From a virus (lineage: Duplodnaviria; Caudoviricetes): a DNA stretch of 62,269 nucleotides. Every line of letters starts with the position of its first letter. Position 1 is the stretch's first letter. A model generated the notes under the pieces. It had not been told where the DNA came from. It saw only the letters and a program-made list of their open reading frames with translations, and searched no databases. Where the stretch lies: positions 1-62,269 of the IMG/VR virus record IMGVR_UViG_3300032332_001372; one strand, given 5' to 3'. Made by a program: the position numbers and the translations under genes. Of this stretch, positions 4,967 to 61,684 are shown piece by piece.

Positions 4967-4980
4967 AGCAGTTTCCTCTC

Positions 4981-5106
4981 TTACGCTGCTTGAGCAACCT
5001 GTTGCTCTTTATGTTCTTGTTTTAAGTGGCGCCCAAGGCTTTCAAAAGCCATTCCGCCGCGGAGTTGCCATTCCTTCTCACATATTGAACAGATGACGAT
5101 TCTCAT
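4981..5106 (-). CDS. 41 aa C2H2-type zinc-finger protein
   Basis: Read manually: MRIVICSICEK...RHLKQEH; strong RBS and TATAAT. Confidence 0.65.
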   Translation of the reverse strand: MRIVICSICEKEWQLRGGMAFESLGRHLKQEHKEQQVAQAA

Positions 5107-5109
5107 ATC

Positions 5110-5260
5110 TGCCCCCTCTCATAACCCATTATACACTACTGGGGTTTGATATTCAAATCAAGATTACAAGTCCAGGCTCGGACACGCCGATATTTTAGGA
5201 TTGGCATGAGTTTGCATATCTAACCCCAGTAGGGTATATTTAGAAATGAGAGAAAGGAAA
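5110..5260. promoter_or_regulatory. Divergent early promoter pair, each with an operator-like AACCCCAGTA in its spacer
   Basis: TTGAAT..TATAAT on minus strand; TTGCAT..TATATT on plus strand. Confidence 0.7.
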
Positions 5261-5265
5261 CCAAA

Positions 5266-6233: not shown

Positions 6234-6269
6234 TATAAACTACAGTTATAAACCTAGAGAGGGGGAAAC

Positions 6270-6926
6270 ATGAGCGCCAAGGTAGAAGATTTATTTGCAG
6301 ATTTAATTAAAGCAACTGGCGAGCCATTGCACTCAGATTTACTCCCATATCTTGAAGATGGAGTTCTGGGCAAGCAATTGCGTCACCCATTGGTTTATCA
6401 AGTTCCACTATGGGCTAACGGTCATGCCAACGCTTATTACTTACAGAAGAAAAAAGCGGTTGCAGAAGCCTTAGAAAATAAGAATTATAATTCTTATGTA
6501 TATTTGCATGAACGCCCATATCGATTACAAGCATTTATCCAAATTGCAGATAAATTGTCTGATACAAAATATTGGACTTTGCTTAGTTCGATTTGGACCG
6601 ACACAGAAAATCAATGGCAAAACCATGAAATTTGGAAAACATTGCTTTCATCAAAGCGTTCTAATCGTCACTACCTATCAGGAGAAGAAGGCGACAATTT
6701 GTTGCGCTCATTACCTGAAGAGGTAACAATTTATCGTGGGTGCCAACCAGGATTAAACGAAAACGGATTATCCTGGACCCTGGATAAAAACAAAGCAAAA
6801 TTCTTTGCCAATCGATTTGGTGAAGAGGGAATCATCTTAGAAAAGAAGATTTCCAAAGCAAGTATCATTGCGGTCCTTTTGGGTCGTGGTGAATTCGAGG
6901 TTATCTACGAGGGGGTAATCAAGTGA
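6270..6926 (+). CDS. Putative ADP-ribosyltransferase-fold protein (R-S-E type)
   Basis: TIYRG, GLSWT, GEFEVI motifs in C-terminal half. Confidence 0.55.
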   Translation: MSAKVEDLFADLIKATGEPLHSDLLPYLEDGVLGKQLRHPLVYQVPLWANGHANAYYLQKKKAVAEALENKNYNSYVYLHERPYRLQAFIQIADKLSDTKYWTLLSSIWTDTENQWQNHEIWKTLLSSKRSNRHYLSGEEGDNLLRSLPEEVTIYRGCQPGLNENGLSWTLDKNKAKFFANRFGEEGIILEKKISKASIIAVLLGRGEFEVIYEGVIK

Positions 6927-7072
6927 TAGAAAACTATTTCAACCGAAAAGGCATCAAATTGTCCCGTAAGGGTCAGCGTTGGGCAGATAATGCCGAGGCA
7001 ATTGTGTTCTTGGTCTTTATATTGCTCGCATTTGGCATTGTGGGGTCCATAGAGAGCGGTAGGTGGTTCTGA
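6923..7072 (+). CDS. Small single-TM protein
   Basis: Read manually; GTGA overlap; hydrophobic C-terminal half. Confidence 0.55.
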   Translation: MIENYFNRKGIKLSRKGQRWADNAEAIVFLVFILLAFGIVGSIESGRWF

Positions 7073-7074
7073 CC

Positions 7075-7239
7075 ATGGGATTACTCAAGCGACTATGGAA
7101 CCTGGCTCACAGCGACAGTTTAGGGGCTATTTCGCCCGAATCTTTGCGGCGTTTACAGCGCTGGGAAAATGAGCGACATCTCCAGGAATTAGCGGATAAG
7201 CGACACGCTCAACAGGATTTGAATACTAAACCAGAGTAG
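7075..7239 (+). CDS. Small hypothetical protein (MGLLKRLWNLAH...)
   Basis: Read manually; directly follows previous ORF. Confidence 0.45.
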   Translation: MGLLKRLWNLAHSDSLGAISPESLRRLQRWENERHLQELADKRHAQQDLNTKPE

Positions 7240-7275
7240 GTTATACTGGTTATACATCGAGAGAGAGGAATCAAG

Positions 7276-7692
7276 ATGACTCAAGCAGCAGTTAAAGCAA
7301 AAGCGGCATACGAGATTTATGTCGAAGCATCCGAAGCGGCAGAAGCCGCGGTCCGTGCTTGCCGACCAACTCCAATGGTTGTTGGTAGCGCAACAACTCC
7401 ATTCGGAAATGAAATCGACGAAACAAAGCCAACATATTATGTTGAAGGCGGTGTTTGCGGATTCGCTTCCGTAGTAATTAAGCCAGCGCGTGGTTCGTTG
7501 GTAGCGCTACTAAAGCAACGCGGTATAGGGCGAAAGTCTTATTACGGCGGTTGGGATGTTGCATCCTGGGAGTTTGCACCAAGTATTCGCCGCGACCAGA
7601 GTTACGAAAGAGCGTGTGCAGCAGCAGGTGCAGCAGCCGCGGTGCTTCGTAGTTATGGAATTAGCGCGGGAGTAGATTCCCGAATCGACTAA
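7276..7692 (+). CDS. Hypothetical early protein (GVCGFA motif)
   Basis: Own promoter, GAGAGAGG RBS, followed by terminator. Confidence 0.8.
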   Translation: MTQAAVKAKAAYEIYVEASEAAEAAVRACRPTPMVVGSATTPFGNEIDETKPTYYVEGGVCGFASVVIKPARGSLVALLKQRGIGRKSYYGGWDVASWEFAPSIRRDQSYERACAAAGAAAAVLRSYGISAGVDSRID

Positions 7693-7703
7693 AACAAAAC
7701 AGT

Positions 7704-7740
7704 TCACCCGCTAATCACCGTTCTGATTAGCGGGTGATTT
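7704..7740 (+). terminator. Intrinsic terminator
   Basis: Perfect 14 bp stem tcacccgctaatca/tgattagcgggtga followed by TTT. Confidence 0.75.
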
Positions 7741-7796
7741 GTATACATAAAGTCCTACCTTTCTACTTTATGTATGCAATTGTGGTGTATCCTACT

Positions 7797-7890
7797 TGTG
7801 TGGGCGCCCCACAGTTCCGTGGAGTCGATTGCCCGTTATGCCATCCTCTCTCACCAGGCGTGATGTGTGCGCCTCCACGGAACACCTAAA
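7797..7890 (+). ncRNA. Candidate structured small RNA with anti-RBS loop
   Basis: Intergenic; TATCCT -10 just upstream; nested stems 7814-7824/7873-7883 and 7835-7842/7857-7864; loop AUCCUCUCUCACCA. Confidence 0.4.
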
Positions 7891-7980
7891 TTTTATGCTT
7901 AACTTAACCTGGGTTATATTGTAAATTGTCAGGTTTATCTGATACCTTAGAGCCAGGTTCGCAAACTACCTAAACTAAAA

Positions 7981-8520
7981 GTGAAGCCAGTCCGATACTG
8001 GCAACATAGATATATCGCAGCCAGCGATAAGAAAATGTTCGCTCCAAACTTTGGAGGAATATTGCGCACTTATGAAAACAAACTTGTAAATCCATTCACT
8101 ATCGCATTAGCAGCAGCGATACTTATTACGACTAATCCATTACAGATTCCCAAAGACGCACCCGCAGCAGCGGATGAACCTGTAATTGTTCAACCAGTAT
8201 TGGTTGAAAGAACGCCCGAAGCGGCAAAAGAATACGCAAAAACAAAGATGGCTGACTACGGCTGGAAATCTCCTGCTCAATGGGTTTGCCTCCTGGATTT
8301 GTGGACGGGCGAATCAAACTGGCGACCAGATGCCTATAACAAGCAAGCCGTATATCAAAATGGCGAGCGCCTTCATGCGGGCGGGATACCTCAAATTTTG
8401 GGACTTGACCCAGACACCACCGTGGAGCGCCAAATTGAAAGAGGCTTCATTTATATTCAATCCAGATACGACACGCCATGCGCAGCAAATAATTTTTGGC
8501 ATACCCATTTTTGGTATTGA
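7981..8520 (+). CDS. Lytic transglycosylase/lysozyme-like muralytic protein with N-terminal TM (real start probably downstream, near 8062)
   Basis: CLLDLWTGESNWRPDA...GIPQ...YIQSRY.TPC.A...WY pattern. Confidence 0.75.
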   Translation: MKPVRYWQHRYIAASDKKMFAPNFGGILRTYENKLVNPFTIALAAAILITTNPLQIPKDAPAAADEPVIVQPVLVERTPEAAKEYAKTKMADYGWKSPAQWVCLLDLWTGESNWRPDAYNKQAVYQNGERLHAGGIPQILGLDPDTTVERQIERGFIYIQSRYDTPCAANNFWHTHFWY

Positions 8521-9173: not shown

Positions 9174-9470
9174 ATGGGTTTAATGGATTTCGTAGATAAG
9201 GCGCCTTGCGCTGTATCTGACCCATGGCTATTTGACCAAACAACAGTTGATTTAGCCCAACCAGGATTATCTTATTGCGCTCGCTGTAAGTTTTGGCAAG
9301 AGTGTGATGATTTGGTCCTTCCAAGAAAAAGTCATTATGATGGAATTGCCGCAGGAAAAATGTGGCGTAATGGAAAAGTTTTGGCTAAGTTAGACCCTGA
9401 TATTCCTAACCGACTAATCGTAGGTGAGGAAGAAGAAATAGAAGAACCCAGCCTGACCCAACAAGAATAG
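9174..9470 (+). CDS. whiB: WhiB-family Fe-S transcription factor
   Basis: APC...DPWLF...YCARC.FWQEC...DGIAAG: four Cys plus G[IV]WGG-like turn. Confidence 0.8.
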   Translation: MGLMDFVDKAPCAVSDPWLFDQTTVDLAQPGLSYCARCKFWQECDDLVLPRKSHYDGIAAGKMWRNGKVLAKLDPDIPNRLIVGEEEEIEEPSLTQQE

Positions 9471-16520: not shown

Positions 16521-18809
16521 ATGGCTGACAATACTTTCACTCCTCCAGAGGGAGTTCGTTCCGCTGCAAAGCGGGCGCTAAAGTGGATTGCAGACGGCAA
16601 GGCTGGTAGCGGCTTTACCTCCGTAGGACACACCAGAGCCACACAATTAGCCAATGGCGAAAACATCTCGCTTGAAACTTTGAACAGAATGAAGTCTTTC
16701 TTTTCGCGCCATGAGGTTGATAAAAAGGCTACTGGATTTAATGAGGGAGAACAAGGTTTTCCTTCTCATGGAAGAGTTGCCTGGGATGCCTGGGGCGGTA
16801 ATGCTGGATTTGCCTGGGCTAAATCAAAAGTTGGGGAAACAGAAAAATCCATTAATAAAAGTGCAGATATTGCTCCTCGCTTGGTTGAACTCAGCGTCGA
16901 TAAATTGCGTTCGCTCCATGAGCGTTTACATAAATCCAGCCCAACCGCATCAACCCTAGAAGTCCATCATTTAACTACAACTGAAATGGCTCGCCGCGGT
17001 ATGGAGTTGCCAGTAAACGACGAATGGCAAAATGTCCGTATTCAGATTGATTATTTTAAAGATGTAGACCTCAAATCTTTTGCTTCAACTTTACCCACAG
17101 GACAAATTGAAGATGTAATTAAGGCAACTGGAACTAGCGTTGCTGATGTCAGAGTTGTTTTAACCTCTATTGGCTATGCCATGGAGATTGCCCCAAATGA
17201 TGTAGTTGCAAAAATGATTAAACATCAAAAAGATAAATGGGTTGTTTATGATTCAACAGGAACTCATGCTTTTGGAACATACGATACAAAAGAAGAAGCA
17301 ATGGACCGCATTGCTGAAATGGAATATTTTAAAAAACACCTTCAAGGTCAGCATGACCAAAAAACCCACGCTCCTATTTGGACAAGAAATCTTGTAGATG
17401 CAATAGAAGCGGGAGAACACCCAGAAGTAGAGCCAGAAAATATTTCTGCAATGCTCAAAGGAATGAGTAAATTAACAACCCATCCAGACATTACGGAAGT
17501 AAGCGTAAAAGGACATTTGCTTTTTGGCGGCGAAGGAATGGGTATTGCCCGCAAAGATATGCCCCAGATTCCAAGCAGGGAAAGAGATAGATTTCTTTCA
17601 GAAATTGAAAAAACAGATGGCGTTACTTTTGATAAAGAAAAGGTGGACCCTACAACTTTGAAACCAATTCAAAAAGAAATTTCTGGTTCTCGGGCTGGCG
17701 CTATTTATAATAAATTTGCGGAAGATGGAGGAATTCCAAAAAATGAACGAATTCTTATTTCCTCCGACGGCTTTGTTGTAGACGGTCACCATACATGGGC
17801 AGCATCAGTTGGATTTGCATTTGACAAACCAGGAACAGAAATCCCAGTTTATCGTTTGTCAATTACTGGTAAGGAAGCCTTAAAGATTTCAAATGATTGG
17901 GCAAAAGCAAACGGATTTGAAGGTCAAGCGATTGACGCCAAGGTTAAAAAATCTTTATATCTTTTAGAACCTATGGAAAAGTTTAATCCTCACCATGATG
18001 AAATTGGAAGATTTACAACTGCAACTGGTGGCGGTTCTAGTGGTGCAACCGTAACAGGAAATACGCAAGATGGTTCTCAAGTTGTAAACGGAATTAAAGT
18101 TCCACCCCTTGCTAAAGAACCTGAAATTAAAGCACACAATCCAGTTGCGCTTGCCAAAGCAAAAGAAATTAATGAAACTGCAAAAAGAGTTGAACCAGCA
18201 ATTACTGGATTAATTACTGCAATTGCTCAACGAAGTGGCGGAGAATTTGTTCAGTTAGACCAGAGGATTAAATCAACTGAAGCGTTGGCTGGAAAAATTG
18301 AACGCGAGGCTGTATCCGAACACGGTGGGGACCTTGATAAAGCAGCAGCGGGTATTTCTGATGCCGTCCGTTACACACTTAAAGTTCCGCAATCTGAATA
18401 TACGGCTTCTTTTGATTCAACAATTAAAGTTTTACAAGATGCAGGTTTTACAACAATCCGACCAAAAAACTTTTGGCAATCAGGCGACCCTTATGATGGC
18501 GCTAATATCAAAGGAATCAAAAACGGAATTCAAATTGAAGTCCAATTACACACCCCTGAATCTTTTGCCATGAAAAAGCGTATACACGGGTATTACGAGG
18601 CTTACAGAAAATCCCCAAACGATACGACCCGCAAGAGGATGTGGACTCGCATGGTCAATATTGCTAAAACATTAGAAAAACCAGCCAACTATTCAACTTT
18701 GCTGGGCATCGGAACCCTTGTTTTACAACAATTCCAAACAGCCCAAGAAGTGGGTTTGGTAAAATCAACTAGGGTTGATATACTAAACCTTAATAAGAGA
18801 GAGGGGTAA
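16521..18809 (+). CDS. Polyprotein: head-associated small domains, ParB/Srx-like domain, RelA/SpoT-like (small alarmone synthetase-type) nucleotidyltransferase
   Basis: LKPIQKEI...DGFVVDGHHTW; RIKSTEAL..KI, DAVRYT, KNFW..GDPYDG, IEVQLHT. Confidence 0.8.
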   Translation: MADNTFTPPEGVRSAAKRALKWIADGKAGSGFTSVGHTRATQLANGENISLETLNRMKSFFSRHEVDKKATGFNEGEQGFPSHGRVAWDAWGGNAGFAWAKSKVGETEKSINKSADIAPRLVELSVDKLRSLHERLHKSSPTASTLEVHHLTTTEMARRGMELPVNDEWQNVRIQIDYFKDVDLKSFASTLPTGQIEDVIKATGTSVADVRVVLTSIGYAMEIAPNDVVAKMIKHQKDKWVVYDSTGTHAFGTYDTKEEAMDRIAEMEYFKKHLQGQHDQKTHAPIWTRNLVDAIEAGEHPEVEPENISAMLKGMSKLTTHPDITEVSVKGHLLFGGEGMGIARKDMPQIPSRERDRFLSEIEKTDGVTFDKEKVDPTTLKPIQKEISGSRAGAIYNKFAEDGGIPKNERILISSDGFVVDGHHTWAASVGFAFDKPGTEIPVYRLSITGKEALKISNDWAKANGFEGQAIDAKVKKSLYLLEPMEKFNPHHDEIGRFTTATGGGSSGATVTGNTQDGSQVVNGIKVPPLAKEPEIKAHNPVALAKAKEINETAKRVEPAITGLITAIAQRSGGEFVQLDQRIKSTEALAGKIEREAVSEHGGDLDKAAAGISDAVRYTLKVPQSEYTASFDSTIKVLQDAGFTTIRPKNFWQSGDPYDGANIKGIKNGIQIEVQLHTPESFAMKKRIHGYYEAYRKSPNDTTRKRMWTRMVNIAKTLEKPANYSTLLGIGTLVLQQFQTAQEVGLVKSTRVDILNLNKREG

Positions 18810-18811
18810 AA

Positions 18812-19546
18812 ATGAGATATTTCATACTTATGAGTATGGGCAAACCCATTAATTTACGCCGCTGGACACCTGAAACTGAAGAGCGATGGCAGGACGGAAA
18901 ATGGGTTCCAAGCGATGTAATCGGAGCATACTTAGCATTAGGCGAAGGCGATTACGATGAAATTACTACGGAATTAGCAATTGCTACATTTCCTGATGCT
19001 TTTGGCGATTTAACAAAGTCAATCGGAGCCTACGAAGTTTCCAAGGCTGAGGATATGAAGCGCTACACATTAGGCGCCATGTATATCCCAGACCGTTTAG
19101 ATGCTCATAGTGAGTGGACATCTGCTGATGAATTACAGCAAGCCGTGTGGACATATGTTCGCTCAGGTGACCGAAATATCCGCCTTCAACATAATCGAGA
19201 AATCGTTGCAGGTGAATGGGTCGAAGTTATGGCTTTCCCTTATGAATTAACAGTTCCAGTTCAACAAGCCGATGGGTCAAAACAATCACATACATATCCA
19301 GCAAATACAGTTTTTCTTGGAGTTGTTTGGGAACCGTGGGCATGGGAACTTGTCCAAAGCGGAAAAATTCTTGGTTACTCAATTGGAGGTAAGGCTGAAC
19401 GCCTTTATGTCGATATGGAAGAAGTTATCAAGGAGGACCCAACTTCTGATGGTCCCTTAGCCTCAGATGTTCATGTTGATACAATAATCAGTCAGCAGAA
19501 AAAAAAGAAACTTCCAAAGATTTTAGTTGAGGATAACAATGTCTAA
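18812..19546 (+). CDS. XkdF-like prohead serine protease with an extra ~65 aa N-terminal domain
   Basis: YIPDRLDAHSEW, LQH, W.LVQSGKILGYSIGG. Confidence 0.8.
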   Translation: MRYFILMSMGKPINLRRWTPETEERWQDGKWVPSDVIGAYLALGEGDYDEITTELAIATFPDAFGDLTKSIGAYEVSKAEDMKRYTLGAMYIPDRLDAHSEWTSADELQQAVWTYVRSGDRNIRLQHNREIVAGEWVEVMAFPYELTVPVQQADGSKQSHTYPANTVFLGVVWEPWAWELVQSGKILGYSIGGKAERLYVDMEEVIKEDPTSDGPLASDVHVDTIISQQKKKKLPKILVEDNNV

Positions 19547-43961: not shown

Positions 43962-44498
43962 ATGACACAACCAGCAATCGACGAATTCGAAGTAGTCGAA
44001 GCACCAGCACCCGAAGGCTTTCGCGTTGATGATGACGAAAAGGCTGAATGGGCAGTTCGAAAGTTAGCCCGTATCCGACGCAAGCAATCGGAAAACAAAT
44101 CAATCTATGACCAAGAATTAGAGCGCATCTCAGAATGGCTCAAAACGGTCAATGAAGCCCTTGAAAGGGACGCCGCATACTTTGAGGCAGTCCTTACCCC
44201 ATACGCGCTCCAGGAGCGCTCCAATGGTCGCAAATCGCTAGTCCTGCCCCACGGCACAGTCAAAACTACGGCTGGTCGCGCCAAGATTGAATTTGAGTCC
44301 GAAGATAAATTTATCGAATGGGCAAAGAGCAACGACCCTGAGTTAATCCGTATCAAACACGAAATCAACAAAAAAGCACTAAATGATTTGATTACGGACG
44401 ATTACCAGGTAATATCAACTCAAGGTGAAATTATCCCTGGAACCAAGGTAATACCACCGACACCATCCGTTTCATTTGCTCTAGGAGAGGATAAGTAA
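43962..44498 (+). CDS. Mu Gam-like host-nuclease inhibitor
   Basis: AEWAVRKL, KSLVLPHGTV, EINKKAL. Confidence 0.8.
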   Translation: MTQPAIDEFEVVEAPAPEGFRVDDDEKAEWAVRKLARIRRKQSENKSIYDQELERISEWLKTVNEALERDAAYFEAVLTPYALQERSNGRKSLVLPHGTVKTTAGRAKIEFESEDKFIEWAKSNDPELIRIKHEINKKALNDLITDDYQVISTQGEIIPGTKVIPPTPSVSFALGEDK

Positions 44499-45143
44499 AT
44501 GCCAACTGTAATTCAATTGCTTAACGAAGTTATGAAAGATGTTGGAGCCATTAGCAAAACTGACAAGAATACTTCGCAGGGATTTAATTTCCGCGGAATT
44601 GATTCAGTCATTAATGCTGTATCCCCAGCACTTCGCAAACATGGAATTGTTGTAGTTCCGTGCGTTGATGATTACCAATACGAATCAATCGAAATTGGAA
44701 AAAACCGAACAGTCATGGGTCATGTCAAGGTGCGAGTTACTTACACTTTTGCAGGTCCCGACGGCGATGCAATTAAAGCAAGCGTTGTAGGAGAAGCCAT
44801 GGATGCAGGCGATAAAGCAACAGCAAAAGCCATGTCAGTTGCATTTCGCACAGCCTTACTTCAATCACTTTGTCTGCCAACAGATGACATTGACCCAGAT
44901 GCTCAATCATACGAGCGCTCTGAAAAAGTTGTTGTTGATACAAAGGCGCTCGCAACTGCAATAGCACAAGCGGGTGACATTGAAACTTTGGCAAAAATTG
45001 GTCAATACATCACAACTAACAAAGACCACATCGAGCCAACAATTCTCGAAACATTGCGTTTGTCATTCAAGGAAGCGCAATCAAAAGTTGCTGTAGCAGT
45101 AGTTGAAAACCCAAAGGTGATTGATGAACCAATCAATGCCTGA
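44499..45143 (+). CDS. erf: ERF-family single-strand annealing protein
   Basis: GFNFRGID, GEAMDAGDKATAKAMSVA. Confidence 0.85.
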   Translation: MPTVIQLLNEVMKDVGAISKTDKNTSQGFNFRGIDSVINAVSPALRKHGIVVVPCVDDYQYESIEIGKNRTVMGHVKVRVTYTFAGPDGDAIKASVVGEAMDAGDKATAKAMSVAFRTALLQSLCLPTDDIDPDAQSYERSEKVVVDTKALATAIAQAGDIETLAKIGQYITTNKDHIEPTILETLRLSFKEAQSKVAVAVVENPKVIDEPINA

Positions 45144-55079: not shown

Positions 55080-55132
55080 TTCAATTCCCCTCTCTGAGAA
55101 CAATCTAATCATATCATACCCTGGTTAGTTAT

Positions 55133-55288
55133 TATGCAGTTTCCGCAACAAATATTGCTTGGATTCTGTATTTTCCGCCGACCCAGGCTGTCGCTGTTAT
55201 CGCGTAAGCCTCAGCCTCGCTTTTAGTCGCAAAATAATACTTTTCTTTTTGACCCTTGATTTCTACTTCATAGACTTTCTTAGCCATT
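55133..55288 (-). CDS. Small early protein (MAKKVYEVEIKG...)
   Basis: Read manually; TAATG overlap. Confidence 0.55.
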
Positions 55289-55413
55289 TACTTGCTCCCC
55301 TCTTGAGCAGCCGCGAATTCGGCTTCGAACGCTTTCACATAGCAGCCCTGGCAAACCTGACCAAAGCCTTCATACTGACCAAACTGGACGCCGCACATTA
55401 AGCACTTTTCCAT
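55288..55413 (-). CDS. 41 aa zinc-ribbon early protein
   Basis: Read manually: MEKCLMCG...VCQGC; RBS and TATAAT. Confidence 0.6.
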   Translation of the reverse strand: MEKCLMCGVQFGQYEGFGQVCQGCYVKAFEAEFAAAQEGSK

Positions 55414-55520
55414 TTCAGCCCCCTTTCCCTTACAAACTAATTATAACCTACCAGGGTTAATAATACAAATCTAAACATTCGTGTTGATTCGAACAAATGT
55501 TCGCCTGATACCCTTAGCCC

Positions 55521-55952
55521 ATGACCCTCACTCCAGTAGTCGCCGCACTTTTGAAGGCTTCATGCCCAACCGCGACACAGGATGTGAAGGTTAATCTTGC
55601 CCACCGAAAGAAGGCTATTAACACAGCCTCCTACGGTCCTCTCAACCCAGCGGAGCCAAATACGGATTACTGGGCAAAGATGGCTAAAGAATGGGATGTC
55701 ACACCTGCCGAGGCTAAGAAACAGCGTTGCGGTAATTGCGCCGCGTTTATTCAAACCTCGGCAATGAAAGAATGTATTACGGGCGGATTAGCCGCGGGTG
55801 ATACAAAGGCTGACGCATATGCAATTGATGCAGCAGGAGATTTGGGATATTGCGAAGCATTTGATTTTAAATGCGCATCTCGCCGCACCTGTCGCGCATG
55901 GATTGTTGGCGGACCCATCACAGATAAAAACTCAAAACCCTCAAAAAAATAG
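55521..55952 (+). CDS. Cys-rich hypothetical protein (putative metal/Fe-S binding)
   Basis: YGPLNP, RCGNCAAF, GYCEAFDFKCASRRTCRAW. Confidence 0.75.
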   Translation: MTLTPVVAALLKASCPTATQDVKVNLAHRKKAINTASYGPLNPAEPNTDYWAKMAKEWDVTPAEAKKQRCGNCAAFIQTSAMKECITGGLAAGDTKADAYAIDAAGDLGYCEAFDFKCASRRTCRAWIVGGPITDKNSKPSKK

Positions 55953-60167: not shown

Positions 60168-60740
60168 CTATGATTTGGTTTTAGATGCAACCCGAGGTTT
60201 TGATGCTACCTTGTTTTGGGTGTAATAAATAAAAGGCGAAGATGTATAGGCATCATTGTCCGCAGCAATTTTTAAAGCCATTTGAATTTTGGCTCCAGCG
60301 GCAAGCGCTCCAATGGCATAACTAGACCCTGAGCCAACGCCATAAAAACCTTTTGCATCCAGGCTGACAGAAAAATCATCAGACAATTCAAAGACTTCTC
60401 CGCCAATGGAAATCAAAAAAGCAAATTTTGTTTCATCATCCTCTGCATCCCATTTATATTCGTTATCTTTAAAGGCAATCTTTAGCGAGGGAACAACTTT
60501 TGCAATCATAAAATGATAAAGGTCTTTTTTATCTTTTTCCGTTGGGATAGGCGGAATCCAGATATGTTGAGCAATATCGCAAGGCGCACATTCGCCGCTT
60601 CCAGCAATTATGTATTCACCGCGTTCAGTTATCTTCACCATTTTAGGATGAGATGCGACGCGCCCGCTTCCTGCTGTTACTTGGCTATCTGCTCCAAATA
60701 CAACTTTGTCGGGATGCTGGACAGCGACGATTGTGGTCAT
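60168..60740 (-). CDS. Ntn-hydrolase, proteasome beta/HslV-like peptidase
   Basis: MTTIVAV N-terminus, ADSQVT..K, GSGSSYAIGAL. Confidence 0.85.
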   Translation of the reverse strand: MTTIVAVQHPDKVVFGADSQVTAGSGRVASHPKMVKITERGEYIIAGSGECAPCDIAQHIWIPPIPTEKDKKDLYHFMIAKVVPSLKIAFKDNEYKWDAEDDETKFAFLISIGGEVFELSDDFSVSLDAKGFYGVGSGSSYAIGALAAGAKIQMALKIAADNDAYTSSPFIYYTQNKVASKPRVASKTKS

Positions 60741-60759
60741 GCCGCAATCTTACTGGGTC

Positions 60760-61653
60760 CTAAATTAAAGCCAGGGCTGACTCGCTCCAGACTTGAGGCG
60801 TTCCCGTGTCAGGCGTATACCCGCCCGCGCCCGTGAAGAGAATAGGTGTATCGGGGAATTCATACCTAATCTGCTCCATAGCCTCTGAATAACCACCGAC
60901 GGTGTAATTTAATTCCGCTAGTGGGTCCTCAGCCAAACCATCTGCACCGCAAACAATAAAGATAAGAGTTGGATTAAAAGCCTTGGCTGCCTCAATAAAA
61001 GACATAGTGCCTAGTTCTAATCCTTCATCATCGGTATCGGCTGCTAATGGAAAGTTAAAGACTTTGTTATCAAAATCTGAAACTAAGCCAGTCCCAGGAA
61101 AGATTCCATATTGGTGAAGTGAAAACTTCAACACATTTGGATTAATCCTCAACAGATTCTCGGTTCCGTCGCCATGGTGAGCATCGCAATCAAATATTGC
61201 TACTCGGTGACCAAGAGCCGTAGCCTTAGTTGCCGCGATAGCCAGGTCAGCAAATACGCAAAACCCGCTTGAATAGTCATATTGCGCATGGTGCTTACCG
61301 CCTGGATAGTGAATTGCTAATTTGGTAGTTCCATTAAGCAATTCATCAAGAGCAGTAAGGGTTCCACCAACAAACAACTTTGCTAATTCGCCTAAGTCGT
61401 GGCGAGCGCCAGTCCATTCATCTGATAAACCTTTGACGGTTACATCGTAAACATATATCGGGTCATGGACCAGCAGCAAATCATCGGTATGCGGCATCTG
61501 AGGCTCAATCTCATAAATATTGTATTTATAATCTTGTCCTTTGAGCAGCAGTTGATTACGCGCTAATTGAAAGCGCCGCCCCTGGGTAGGGTGCGTAGGG
61601 TCAAACACCCAATTGGAATACTCGGGTGAGTGAACAATAATTGCATCTTCCAT
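60760..61653 (-). CDS. Zn-dependent deacetylase, histone deacetylase/AcuC family
   Basis: HP...R, GGKHHA, SGFC, DCDAHHGDGT, FPGTG, GADG..DPL, GGY. Confidence 0.9.
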   Translation of the reverse strand: MEDAIIVHSPEYSNWVFDPTHPTQGRRFQLARNQLLLKGQDYKYNIYEIEPQMPHTDDLLLVHDPIYVYDVTVKGLSDEWTGARHDLGELAKLFVGGTLTALDELLNGTTKLAIHYPGGKHHAQYDYSSGFCVFADLAIAATKATALGHRVAIFDCDAHHGDGTENLLRINPNVLKFSLHQYGIFPGTGLVSDFDNKVFNFPLAADTDDEGLELGTMSFIEAAKAFNPTLIFIVCGADGLAEDPLAELNYTVGGYSEAMEQIRYEFPDTPILFTGAGGYTPDTGTPQVWSESALALI

Positions 61654-61684
61654 ATCTATACCTCTCTCTCATATTAAACCCCCA

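Follow-up and report, generated by a model that had tools for sequence, protein, structure and literature searches.

The locus raises the question of whether a strongly folded non-coding stretch between two genes of this phage merely separates one transcription unit from the next, or whether it yields an RNA that acts on the phage's own messages through a loop complementary to their ribosome-binding sites. The window, by which we mean the whole stretch of DNA analyzed, is a complete record of a virus, 62,269 bases long and carrying direct terminal repeats; the element lies within the intergenic region between 7692 and 8062, with every feature named in this paragraph on the plus strand. Upstream lies an early gene (7276-7692) encoding a 138-aa protein of no Pfam or PHROG family, with the ribosome-binding site GAGAGAGGAA at 7261-7270; downstream lies a transglycosylase-like gene (8062-8520; phrog_12661 transglycosylase, E 3.2e-13). 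Between them, the terminator-like hairpin T1 (7704-7737) has 14 pairs and a CCGUUC loop and is followed by UUUGU. Next comes P0 (7741-7777), a 13-bp A/U-rich stem with the pyrimidine-rich loop CCUACCUUUCU (7754-7764), a second hairpin that the preliminary description of this stretch had left unremarked. P1 (7781-7813) has the consensus GGUAYC..GGGUACC, which is degenerate in the window, and carries TATCCT (7788-7793) in its 5' arm. P2 (7814-7883) is built from an 11-bp basal stem of perfect pairs (7814-7824/7873-7883), internal loops, a 9-bp inner stem (CGUUAUGCC/GGCGUGAUG; three of the nine pairs are G-U), and a 14-nt apical loop, AUCCUCUCUCACCA (7843-7856), whose core CCUCUCUC (7845-7852) is the complement of GAGAGAGG. 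The tail ACCUAAAUUUUAU (7884-7896) follows P2 as a possible 3' end, and the promoter-like TGATACCTT (7940-7948) stands ahead of the next gene's conserved leader. The TATCCT hexamer, outer stem, 14-nt loop, and upstream terminator that the preliminary description had named are all in the sequence; it was also right about the three G-U pairs of the inner stem, which has nine pairs rather than the eight it gave.

Placement of the RNA structure on the plus strand, which had been favored at the outset, is supported by several measures. Specifically, the plus-strand fold of 7741-7900 reaches -62.8 kcal/mol versus a shuffle mean of -35.4 (z -8.07; 0/200 shuffles as good), while the minus strand gives a z of only -3.80, and a covariance model scores about 147 bits on the plus strand versus about 15 on the minus strand. 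Pairs that changed on one side only, in the alignment of relatives, became U-G or G-U. A protein-coding reading of the element, which the open reading frames at 7734-7889 and 7796-7924 would permit, was rejected, as non-triplet indels and paired stem changes in relatives stand against it. A terminator scan with a loop limit of 8 nt listed T1 and did not list P2, with its 14-nt loop. The leader of the transglycosylase-like gene (approximately 7946-8061) is highly conserved in relatives and holds two small hairpins; within it, the GGAGG Shine-Dalgarno could be sequestered by a CUCC found a few bases upstream. For this gene, TTG at 8062 (ATG in relatives) is a likelier start than that of the longer open reading frame from 7981. 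Comparison by eye of the P2 loop with this leader, in the window sequence, gave no complementarity.

The element recurs widely among related phages, a family that is abundant in lake viromes; IMG/VR contains more than 100 relatives of the downstream gene. From 18 sequences we built a covariance model, which finds the element in 77 of 85 sources, always on the plus strand and about 150-270 nt upstream of the downstream gene. Of the eight sources without a clear match, three (L008-L010) represent a single distant phage in triplicate, three (L038, L047, and L057) are truncated by the end of their contig, and two (L070 and L071) are deletion variants. It is present as a single copy in the window and in each of the five complete relatives (5/5). 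Further, a DNA-pattern scan that was independent of the flanking proteins gave, among the matches listed, 12 that were true by the model in 79 loci; seven members were new, and all six with enough flanking sequence sit between homologues of the same two genes. In a second scan of viral contigs, again with loose patterns, the model confirmed 38 of 100 sources among the matches listed; in both scans, most matches were due to chance. In a more distant group, at about 50% identity (L270-L283), coding sequence lies upstream of the gene, and no element was found.

Conservation of structure and loop, which had been proposed as a check on the locus, was borne out by the pattern of substitutions. Across 53 distinct sequences, 12 of the 21 modelled pairs had changed on both sides, and 94.7% of cells were paired; 0 of 500 shuffles reached any of five measures, and sliding the 3' partner by 1-3 columns lowered pairing to 38-51%. 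The main covariation signal comes from the P2 basal stem (7/13 pairs double-changed, 97.7% of cells paired, 0/500 shuffles). P1 is weaker evidence for structure than P2, because its pairs are mostly invariant or changed on one side to U-G. The stems of P0 vary by lineage while its CCUUUC loop motif is kept, and CCTTTC occurs in a hairpin loop, of either P0 or T1, at 25 of 55 distinct loci; the T1 loop itself is CCGUUC in the window and its nearer relatives and CUUCUU in a more distant group. In single-sequence folds, CCUCUCU is fully unpaired in an apical loop in 54 of 57 distinct sequences. The helices that close this loop take 21 distinct forms and the loops 13, every one of the latter with CCUCUCU; thus, the stems change between lineages and the loop stays.

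The element also matches no described RNA family. With Rfam 15 at gathering thresholds, a search of the whole window, also proposed beforehand and covering models that include C4 antisense RNA and 6C RNA, gave 0 matches, and at E<=10 the window region, together with L090 and L049, gave chance-level matches only, none of them on P1 or P2 and none at this cutoff to 6C RNA. Two candidates were set aside as chance, namely CopA, whose match covers T1 and P0 on the minus strand (25.6 bits versus a threshold of 60), and LhrC (E 7.2, on the upstream hairpins of a relative). That the element is a new structured RNA family, absent from Rfam, is well supported, and it would be so even if its mechanism proved to be other than the one proposed below.

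The host is probably a freshwater member of the Actinomycetota, a view that draws on gene content and on where the sequence has been seen. Specifically, a WhiB-like protein is encoded at 9174-9470 (phrog_472, E 3.3e-6, with a C-x2-C-x5-C motif; a Pfam search was without match), Streptomyces phages account for 76 of the 77 phage records that match the transglycosylase-like gene, and lake water is the source of the sole sequencing run (X1) containing part of the region. Freshwater Actinomycetota are hard to culture, and almost nothing is known of RNA regulation in them. Near and distant DNA searches of the cultured phage collection gave no match to the window, a head protein had weak partial matches at best, and no tRNA or tmRNA genes were found in the window. 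Run X1 is labelled metatranscriptomic and flagged as probably DNA; among its contigs, one spans 7695-7969 with 7 differences, and others span 6795-7586 and 7987-8495. In a close relative represented in this run, the 26 bases before the ATG at 7276 (7249-7276), including the GAGAGAGG site, are swapped for 140 other letters. Elsewhere in the window (60168-61653, minus strand), the phage encodes a histone-deacetylase-domain protein (PF00850, E 1.8e-53), whose gene has GAGAGAGG as its ribosome-binding site; the product of the adjoining gene weakly matches a proteasome subunit (PF00227, E 1.3e-5). Strong folding is also seen in two divergent intergenic regions, 5107-5265 at -58.8 kcal/mol (159 nt) and 55080-55520 at -124.6 kcal/mol (441 nt, minus strand), which are likely early promoter and regulatory regions.

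What gives the P2 loop its interest is the distribution of its complement. GAGAGAGG occurs six times in the window versus 0.84 expected, and 0 of 100 shuffles reach six. One copy is the loop's own complement, another is antisense within a gene, and the other four each lie exactly 7 nt before a start codon. These four are candidate targets: GAGAGAGG(AT) at 1723-1730 on the minus strand, before the start at 1715 (full site GAGAGAGGAT; duplex with the loop -17.9 kcal/mol); GAGAGAGG(AA) at 7261-7268 on the plus strand, before the ATG at 7276 (-16.9 kcal/mol); and GAGAGAGG at 18797-18804 on the plus strand, before the ATG at 18812 of an XkdF-like protease (-15.8 kcal/mol), and at 61661-61668 on the minus strand, before the ATG at 61653 of the deacetylase-domain protein (-14.9 kcal/mol). 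The shorter AGAGAGG is present in 15 copies versus 4.12 expected and is the commonest 7-mer in ribosome-binding-site windows (8/101 genes, with genes and starts taken from our own rough calls). It provides a further candidate target at 6256-6262 on the plus strand, before the ATG at 6270, and similar sites on the minus strand at 1146-1152, 4975-4981, and 55089-55095 are candidates as well. Genes at 1136, 2079, 5106, and 55079, all on the minus strand, and at 6270 have GAGAGG[GA] as their ribosome-binding sites.

These sites are concentrated toward the genome ends. By the same rough gene calls, GAGAGG-type sites precede 11 of 36 end-proximal genes (at or below 7700, or at or above 51585) versus 3 of 65 middle genes (Fisher p 5.7e-4), and AGGAG or GGAGG sites precede 20 of the 65 middle genes. 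The division between early and late ribosome-binding sites asserted in the preliminary description therefore holds, and every early site that it listed is present. The middle-gene exceptions are the Gam-like and Erf-like recombination genes (43962-45143), which are non-structural, and the XkdF-like protease; the two recombination genes indicate that the site class tracks gene function rather than map position alone. The five complete relatives have 11-15 GAGAGG-N4-10-ATG sites each versus 1-3 for a reversed-pattern control. The distant phage that lacks the element (L008-L010) has 15 AGGAG and 11 GGAGG sites on the plus strand versus 2 of GAGAGG.

Predicted pairing energies follow the same division. 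Against the 22 nt before the start, the loop gives -14 to -18 kcal/mol at the genes starting at 1715, 1136, 7276, 5106, 55079, 18812, 61653, 6270, and 4966. For the 16S 3' tail, we used a 12-nt generic actinobacterial motif, from which the tail of the host may differ. At GAGAGG sites (n=14), the mean duplex is -14.96 with the loop versus -12.34 with this generic tail; at AGGAG sites (n=28), it is -7.56 with the loop versus -9.41 with the tail, a contrast (p 1.1e-5) that is partly circular, as the class is defined by GAGAGG itself. AGAGAGG can also pair, with one G-U, with the extreme 3' end of the generic tail, and the site class could thus have a ribosomal explanation of its own. A rival and very improbable reading is that the element is a decoy of the 16S tail, its pyrimidine-rich loops mimicking the anti-Shine-Dalgarno and so sequestering a host factor that targets it (e.g., a ribonuclease toxin or ribosomal protein) instead of pairing with phage mRNAs. 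It would account for the succession of three pyrimidine-rich loops (CCGUUC, CCUACCUUUCU, and AUCCUCUCUCACCA), unlike the loops of the window's other intergenic hairpins (e.g., GUAA, AUAU, and CCAU), and for the resemblance of the CCUUUC and CCCCUUUC loops to the 16S tail motif. However, CCUCUCUC differs from 16S and is a better match than the generic tail to the sites of the phage itself, and the loops of L211 and L090 track the phage site class.

The latter loci belong to a sister lineage in which both partners differ. In L211/L212, the core of the P2 loop is CCUCUUUC, P1 is replaced by a hairpin with the loop ACCCCUUUC, and P0 carries GUCCCUUCUC; the early sites are GGAAAGGGGA, GAAAGGGGGA, and GAAGAGGAGGGGA, with zero GAGAGG, and the early sites of the sister lineage read GAAAGGGG. 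In L090, a hairpin loop UCCCCCCCCCUUUC stands opposite the upstream gene's site, GAAAGGGGGA. Counted over the upstream 3.2 kb, the 47 distinct loci with CCUCUCUC have 125 GAGAGG-type versus 7 GAAAGG-type sites, and the two distinct loci with CCUCUUUC have 0 versus 3. Loops and sites appear to have changed in step in this one sister lineage (two distinct loci and L090), which is one evolutionary event and not a set of phylogenetically independent ones. Beyond the core, the commonest site flanks are complementary at loci with a GUCC loop (3' AC in 29/110, 5' GA in 44/110), and at those with a UACC loop (n=5), the matching TA flank is found in 0 of 14 sites.

Two deletion variants bear on the same point. 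L070 has lost the 3' arm of P1, P2, and the next promoter (2860-2900), fusing the P1 hexamer to the downstream leader, and L071 has lost the distal half of P2 and the TTGACA box that follows it (2805-2921). Both retain GAGAGG-type sites; hence, either at least some of the assembled genomes can do without P2, or the two are defective or products of misassembly. The central proposal of the preliminary description, a trans-acting shut-off of the early class, is supported in part: the conserved structure, the complementarity of loop and site, the enrichment of the sites, and the parallel change speak for it, and the two variants that keep GAGAGG without an intact P2 speak against a strictly necessary role for the hairpin.

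How such an RNA would be transcribed can be considered from the signals around the hairpins. TAnnnT lies in the 5' arm of P1 in 56 of 57 sequences, with its last T in the hairpin loop. No -35 and no TGn were found at canonical spacing from it, a promoter scan lists no promoter here, and in L090 and L211, the hairpin that replaces P1 is without any TAnnnT. A repeated promoter motif derived from P1, GTGTAYCCTA with one mismatch, was rejected, with 6 matches versus 3.23 expected (not significant). Downstream of P2, 28 of 57 sequences have a U-rich tail and 26 of 57 have a TTGACA box no more than 30 nt away, and because one or the other comes after it, P2 most likely closes a transcription unit. 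Further, the stems of P0, which is upstream of the hexamer, covary, and its loop is conserved, which suggests that RNA is made across it and that transcription enters from upstream of the hexamer. We therefore favor, on these sequence features, a putative RNA that either derives from the early operon's 3' end or starts just before P2.

The same signals could be read at the level of DNA, with TAYNNT as a -10, the GGTACC repeats as an operator, and P2 as the plain terminator of a short transcript that has no target. We consider this distinctly unlikely. The near-universal TAnnnT, kept although its last T lies in a hairpin loop, is what a -10 would predict, and in L070 the deletion places the hexamer at the downstream leader, where the normal promoter would be. 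The motif TGnTACCYT, moreover, occurs both at 7940, before the leader of the next gene, and at 55506 (55506-55514), the latter 6 nt before an ATG without a Shine-Dalgarno. Yet a bare terminator has no need of an 8-nt loop that stays invariant while the stems differ from lineage to lineage, the covarying P0 argues for RNA upstream of the hexamer, and the replacement of P1 in L090 and L211 dispenses with TAnnnT. At the second of these motifs (55506-55523), TGATACCCT lies 6 nt before the ATG at 55521, and the arrangement there resembles that of a leaderless mRNA preceded by an extended -10; leaderless mRNAs are common in Actinomycetota.

A rather unlikely alternative, though one of more weight, is that the element acts in cis at the boundary between early and middle genes, as a terminator or attenuator, as a determinant of RNA stability, or as a processive antiterminator like put of HK022, with a protein or the polymerase reading the loop and the match to the sites being incidental. 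The put element consists of two adjacent hairpins in the phage early region that act in cis on RNA polymerase; hairpins are likewise adjacent here, but put is without complementarity to ribosome-binding sites. In every locus examined, the element keeps a fixed place between one and the same pair of genes. A terminator-like hairpin immediately precedes it, a promoter-like site and then a conserved leader follow it, and the sequence of P1 and of the P2 basal stem is kept beyond what pairing needs; the U-rich tail that follows P2 in about half of the sequences would also suit a cis-acting terminator. Fixed position, however, cannot separate a cis element from a trans-acting gene. A cis element also leaves unexplained the exact complementarity between the invariant loop and the site motif with the strongest enrichment, and the joint change of loop and site in L211 and L090. 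The TTGACA box so soon after P2 makes P2 seem the end of one unit rather than the lead of the next, and in L070, where P2 is missing, the P1 hexamer directly abuts the downstream leader.

The best reading, to which we assign a probability of about 0.5, is that of a base-pairing RNA that occludes early ribosome-binding sites. As in base-pairing small RNAs generally, the seed is held single-stranded in a stable, covarying structure, and the complementary sites lie at ribosome-binding sites, where they are enriched and conserved; the transcript and its ends, the action in trans, the timing, and the repressive effect are what we infer. Specifically, the plus strand of 7741-7896, at the 3' end of an early unit, would give rise to a structured non-coding RNA with two or three hairpins; its source would be either the early operon, through processing of read-through transcripts, or a TAYNNT promoter of its own. 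The apical loop of P2 (CCUCUCUC and its flanks) would pair, through 6 to 10 Watson-Crick pairs, with Shine-Dalgarno regions of the GAGAGAGG type, which the phage family keeps mainly for early and non-structural genes. As the RNA accumulated, early ribosome-binding sites would become occluded, and the early class would be turned off while late genes continued. The CCUUUC-type loop of P0 may act likewise on GAAAGG-type sites. More tentatively, and with somewhat less than even confidence, we propose the fuller scheme of a private early-gene site code (GAGAGAGG, or GAAAGGGG in the sister lineage) read by a multi-hairpin RNA with perfectly complementary loops, which would out-compete the anti-Shine-Dalgarno tail and silence the whole early class at once.

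The timing of phage gene expression is mostly attributed to transcription factors, together with a small number of RNA-binding proteins. If the base-pairing reading is true, this phage family would time gene expression in a different and very compact way, through a dedicated class of ribosome-binding sites, and phages could be said to evolve a private translational code beside that of the host. Under the fuller scheme, the element would be the RNA analogue of RegA/RegB in T4 and, among viruses, the first RNA to act as a class-wide, address-coded timer of translation. The pair of loop and site is small and designable, and it could become an orthogonal translational switch. A search of the literature on anti-Shine-Dalgarno sequences, phage small RNAs, early genes, and CCUCUCUC found no such RNA described among the papers listed.

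Several known systems share parts of this design. The c4 RNA of phages P1 and P7 is made from the same transcription unit as its target. Bases in its loops pair around the ribosome-binding site of a phage mRNA and block translation (PMC12197685). The c4 RNA resembles the element in being a phage-encoded structured RNA with the complementary bases in its loops, and it differs in serving one target operon (icd/ant) and immunity, whereas the loop described here fits a class of sites spread over both genome ends. In T4, RegA and RegB shut down many early mRNAs post-transcriptionally via their ribosome-binding regions, with RegB cutting GGAG in early Shine-Dalgarno sequences; these are proteins, whereas here an RNA loop would do the recognizing, and the early class has a motif of its own, GAGAGG. 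Among cellular RNAs, Staphylococcus aureus RNAIII and RsaE, the actinobacterial 6C RNA, and Listeria LhrC use pyrimidine-rich apical loops to pair with the purine-rich Shine-Dalgarno regions of several mRNAs, and they have a similar multi-hairpin architecture with C- or CU-rich loops, but other sequences. Terminator loops can also pair with targets, and the 3' ends of operons can serve as regulators (PMC11979758); in small RNAs derived from 3' UTRs, a stable structured operon end likewise becomes the regulator, although here the targets would be the phage's own early genes. By sequence and by model, the element belongs to none of these named families, and on the base-pairing reading it would be a new form of antisense control. 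The c4 RNA is the phage example nearest to it in mechanism, and RegA and RegB of T4 come nearest in the effect on early genes as a class.
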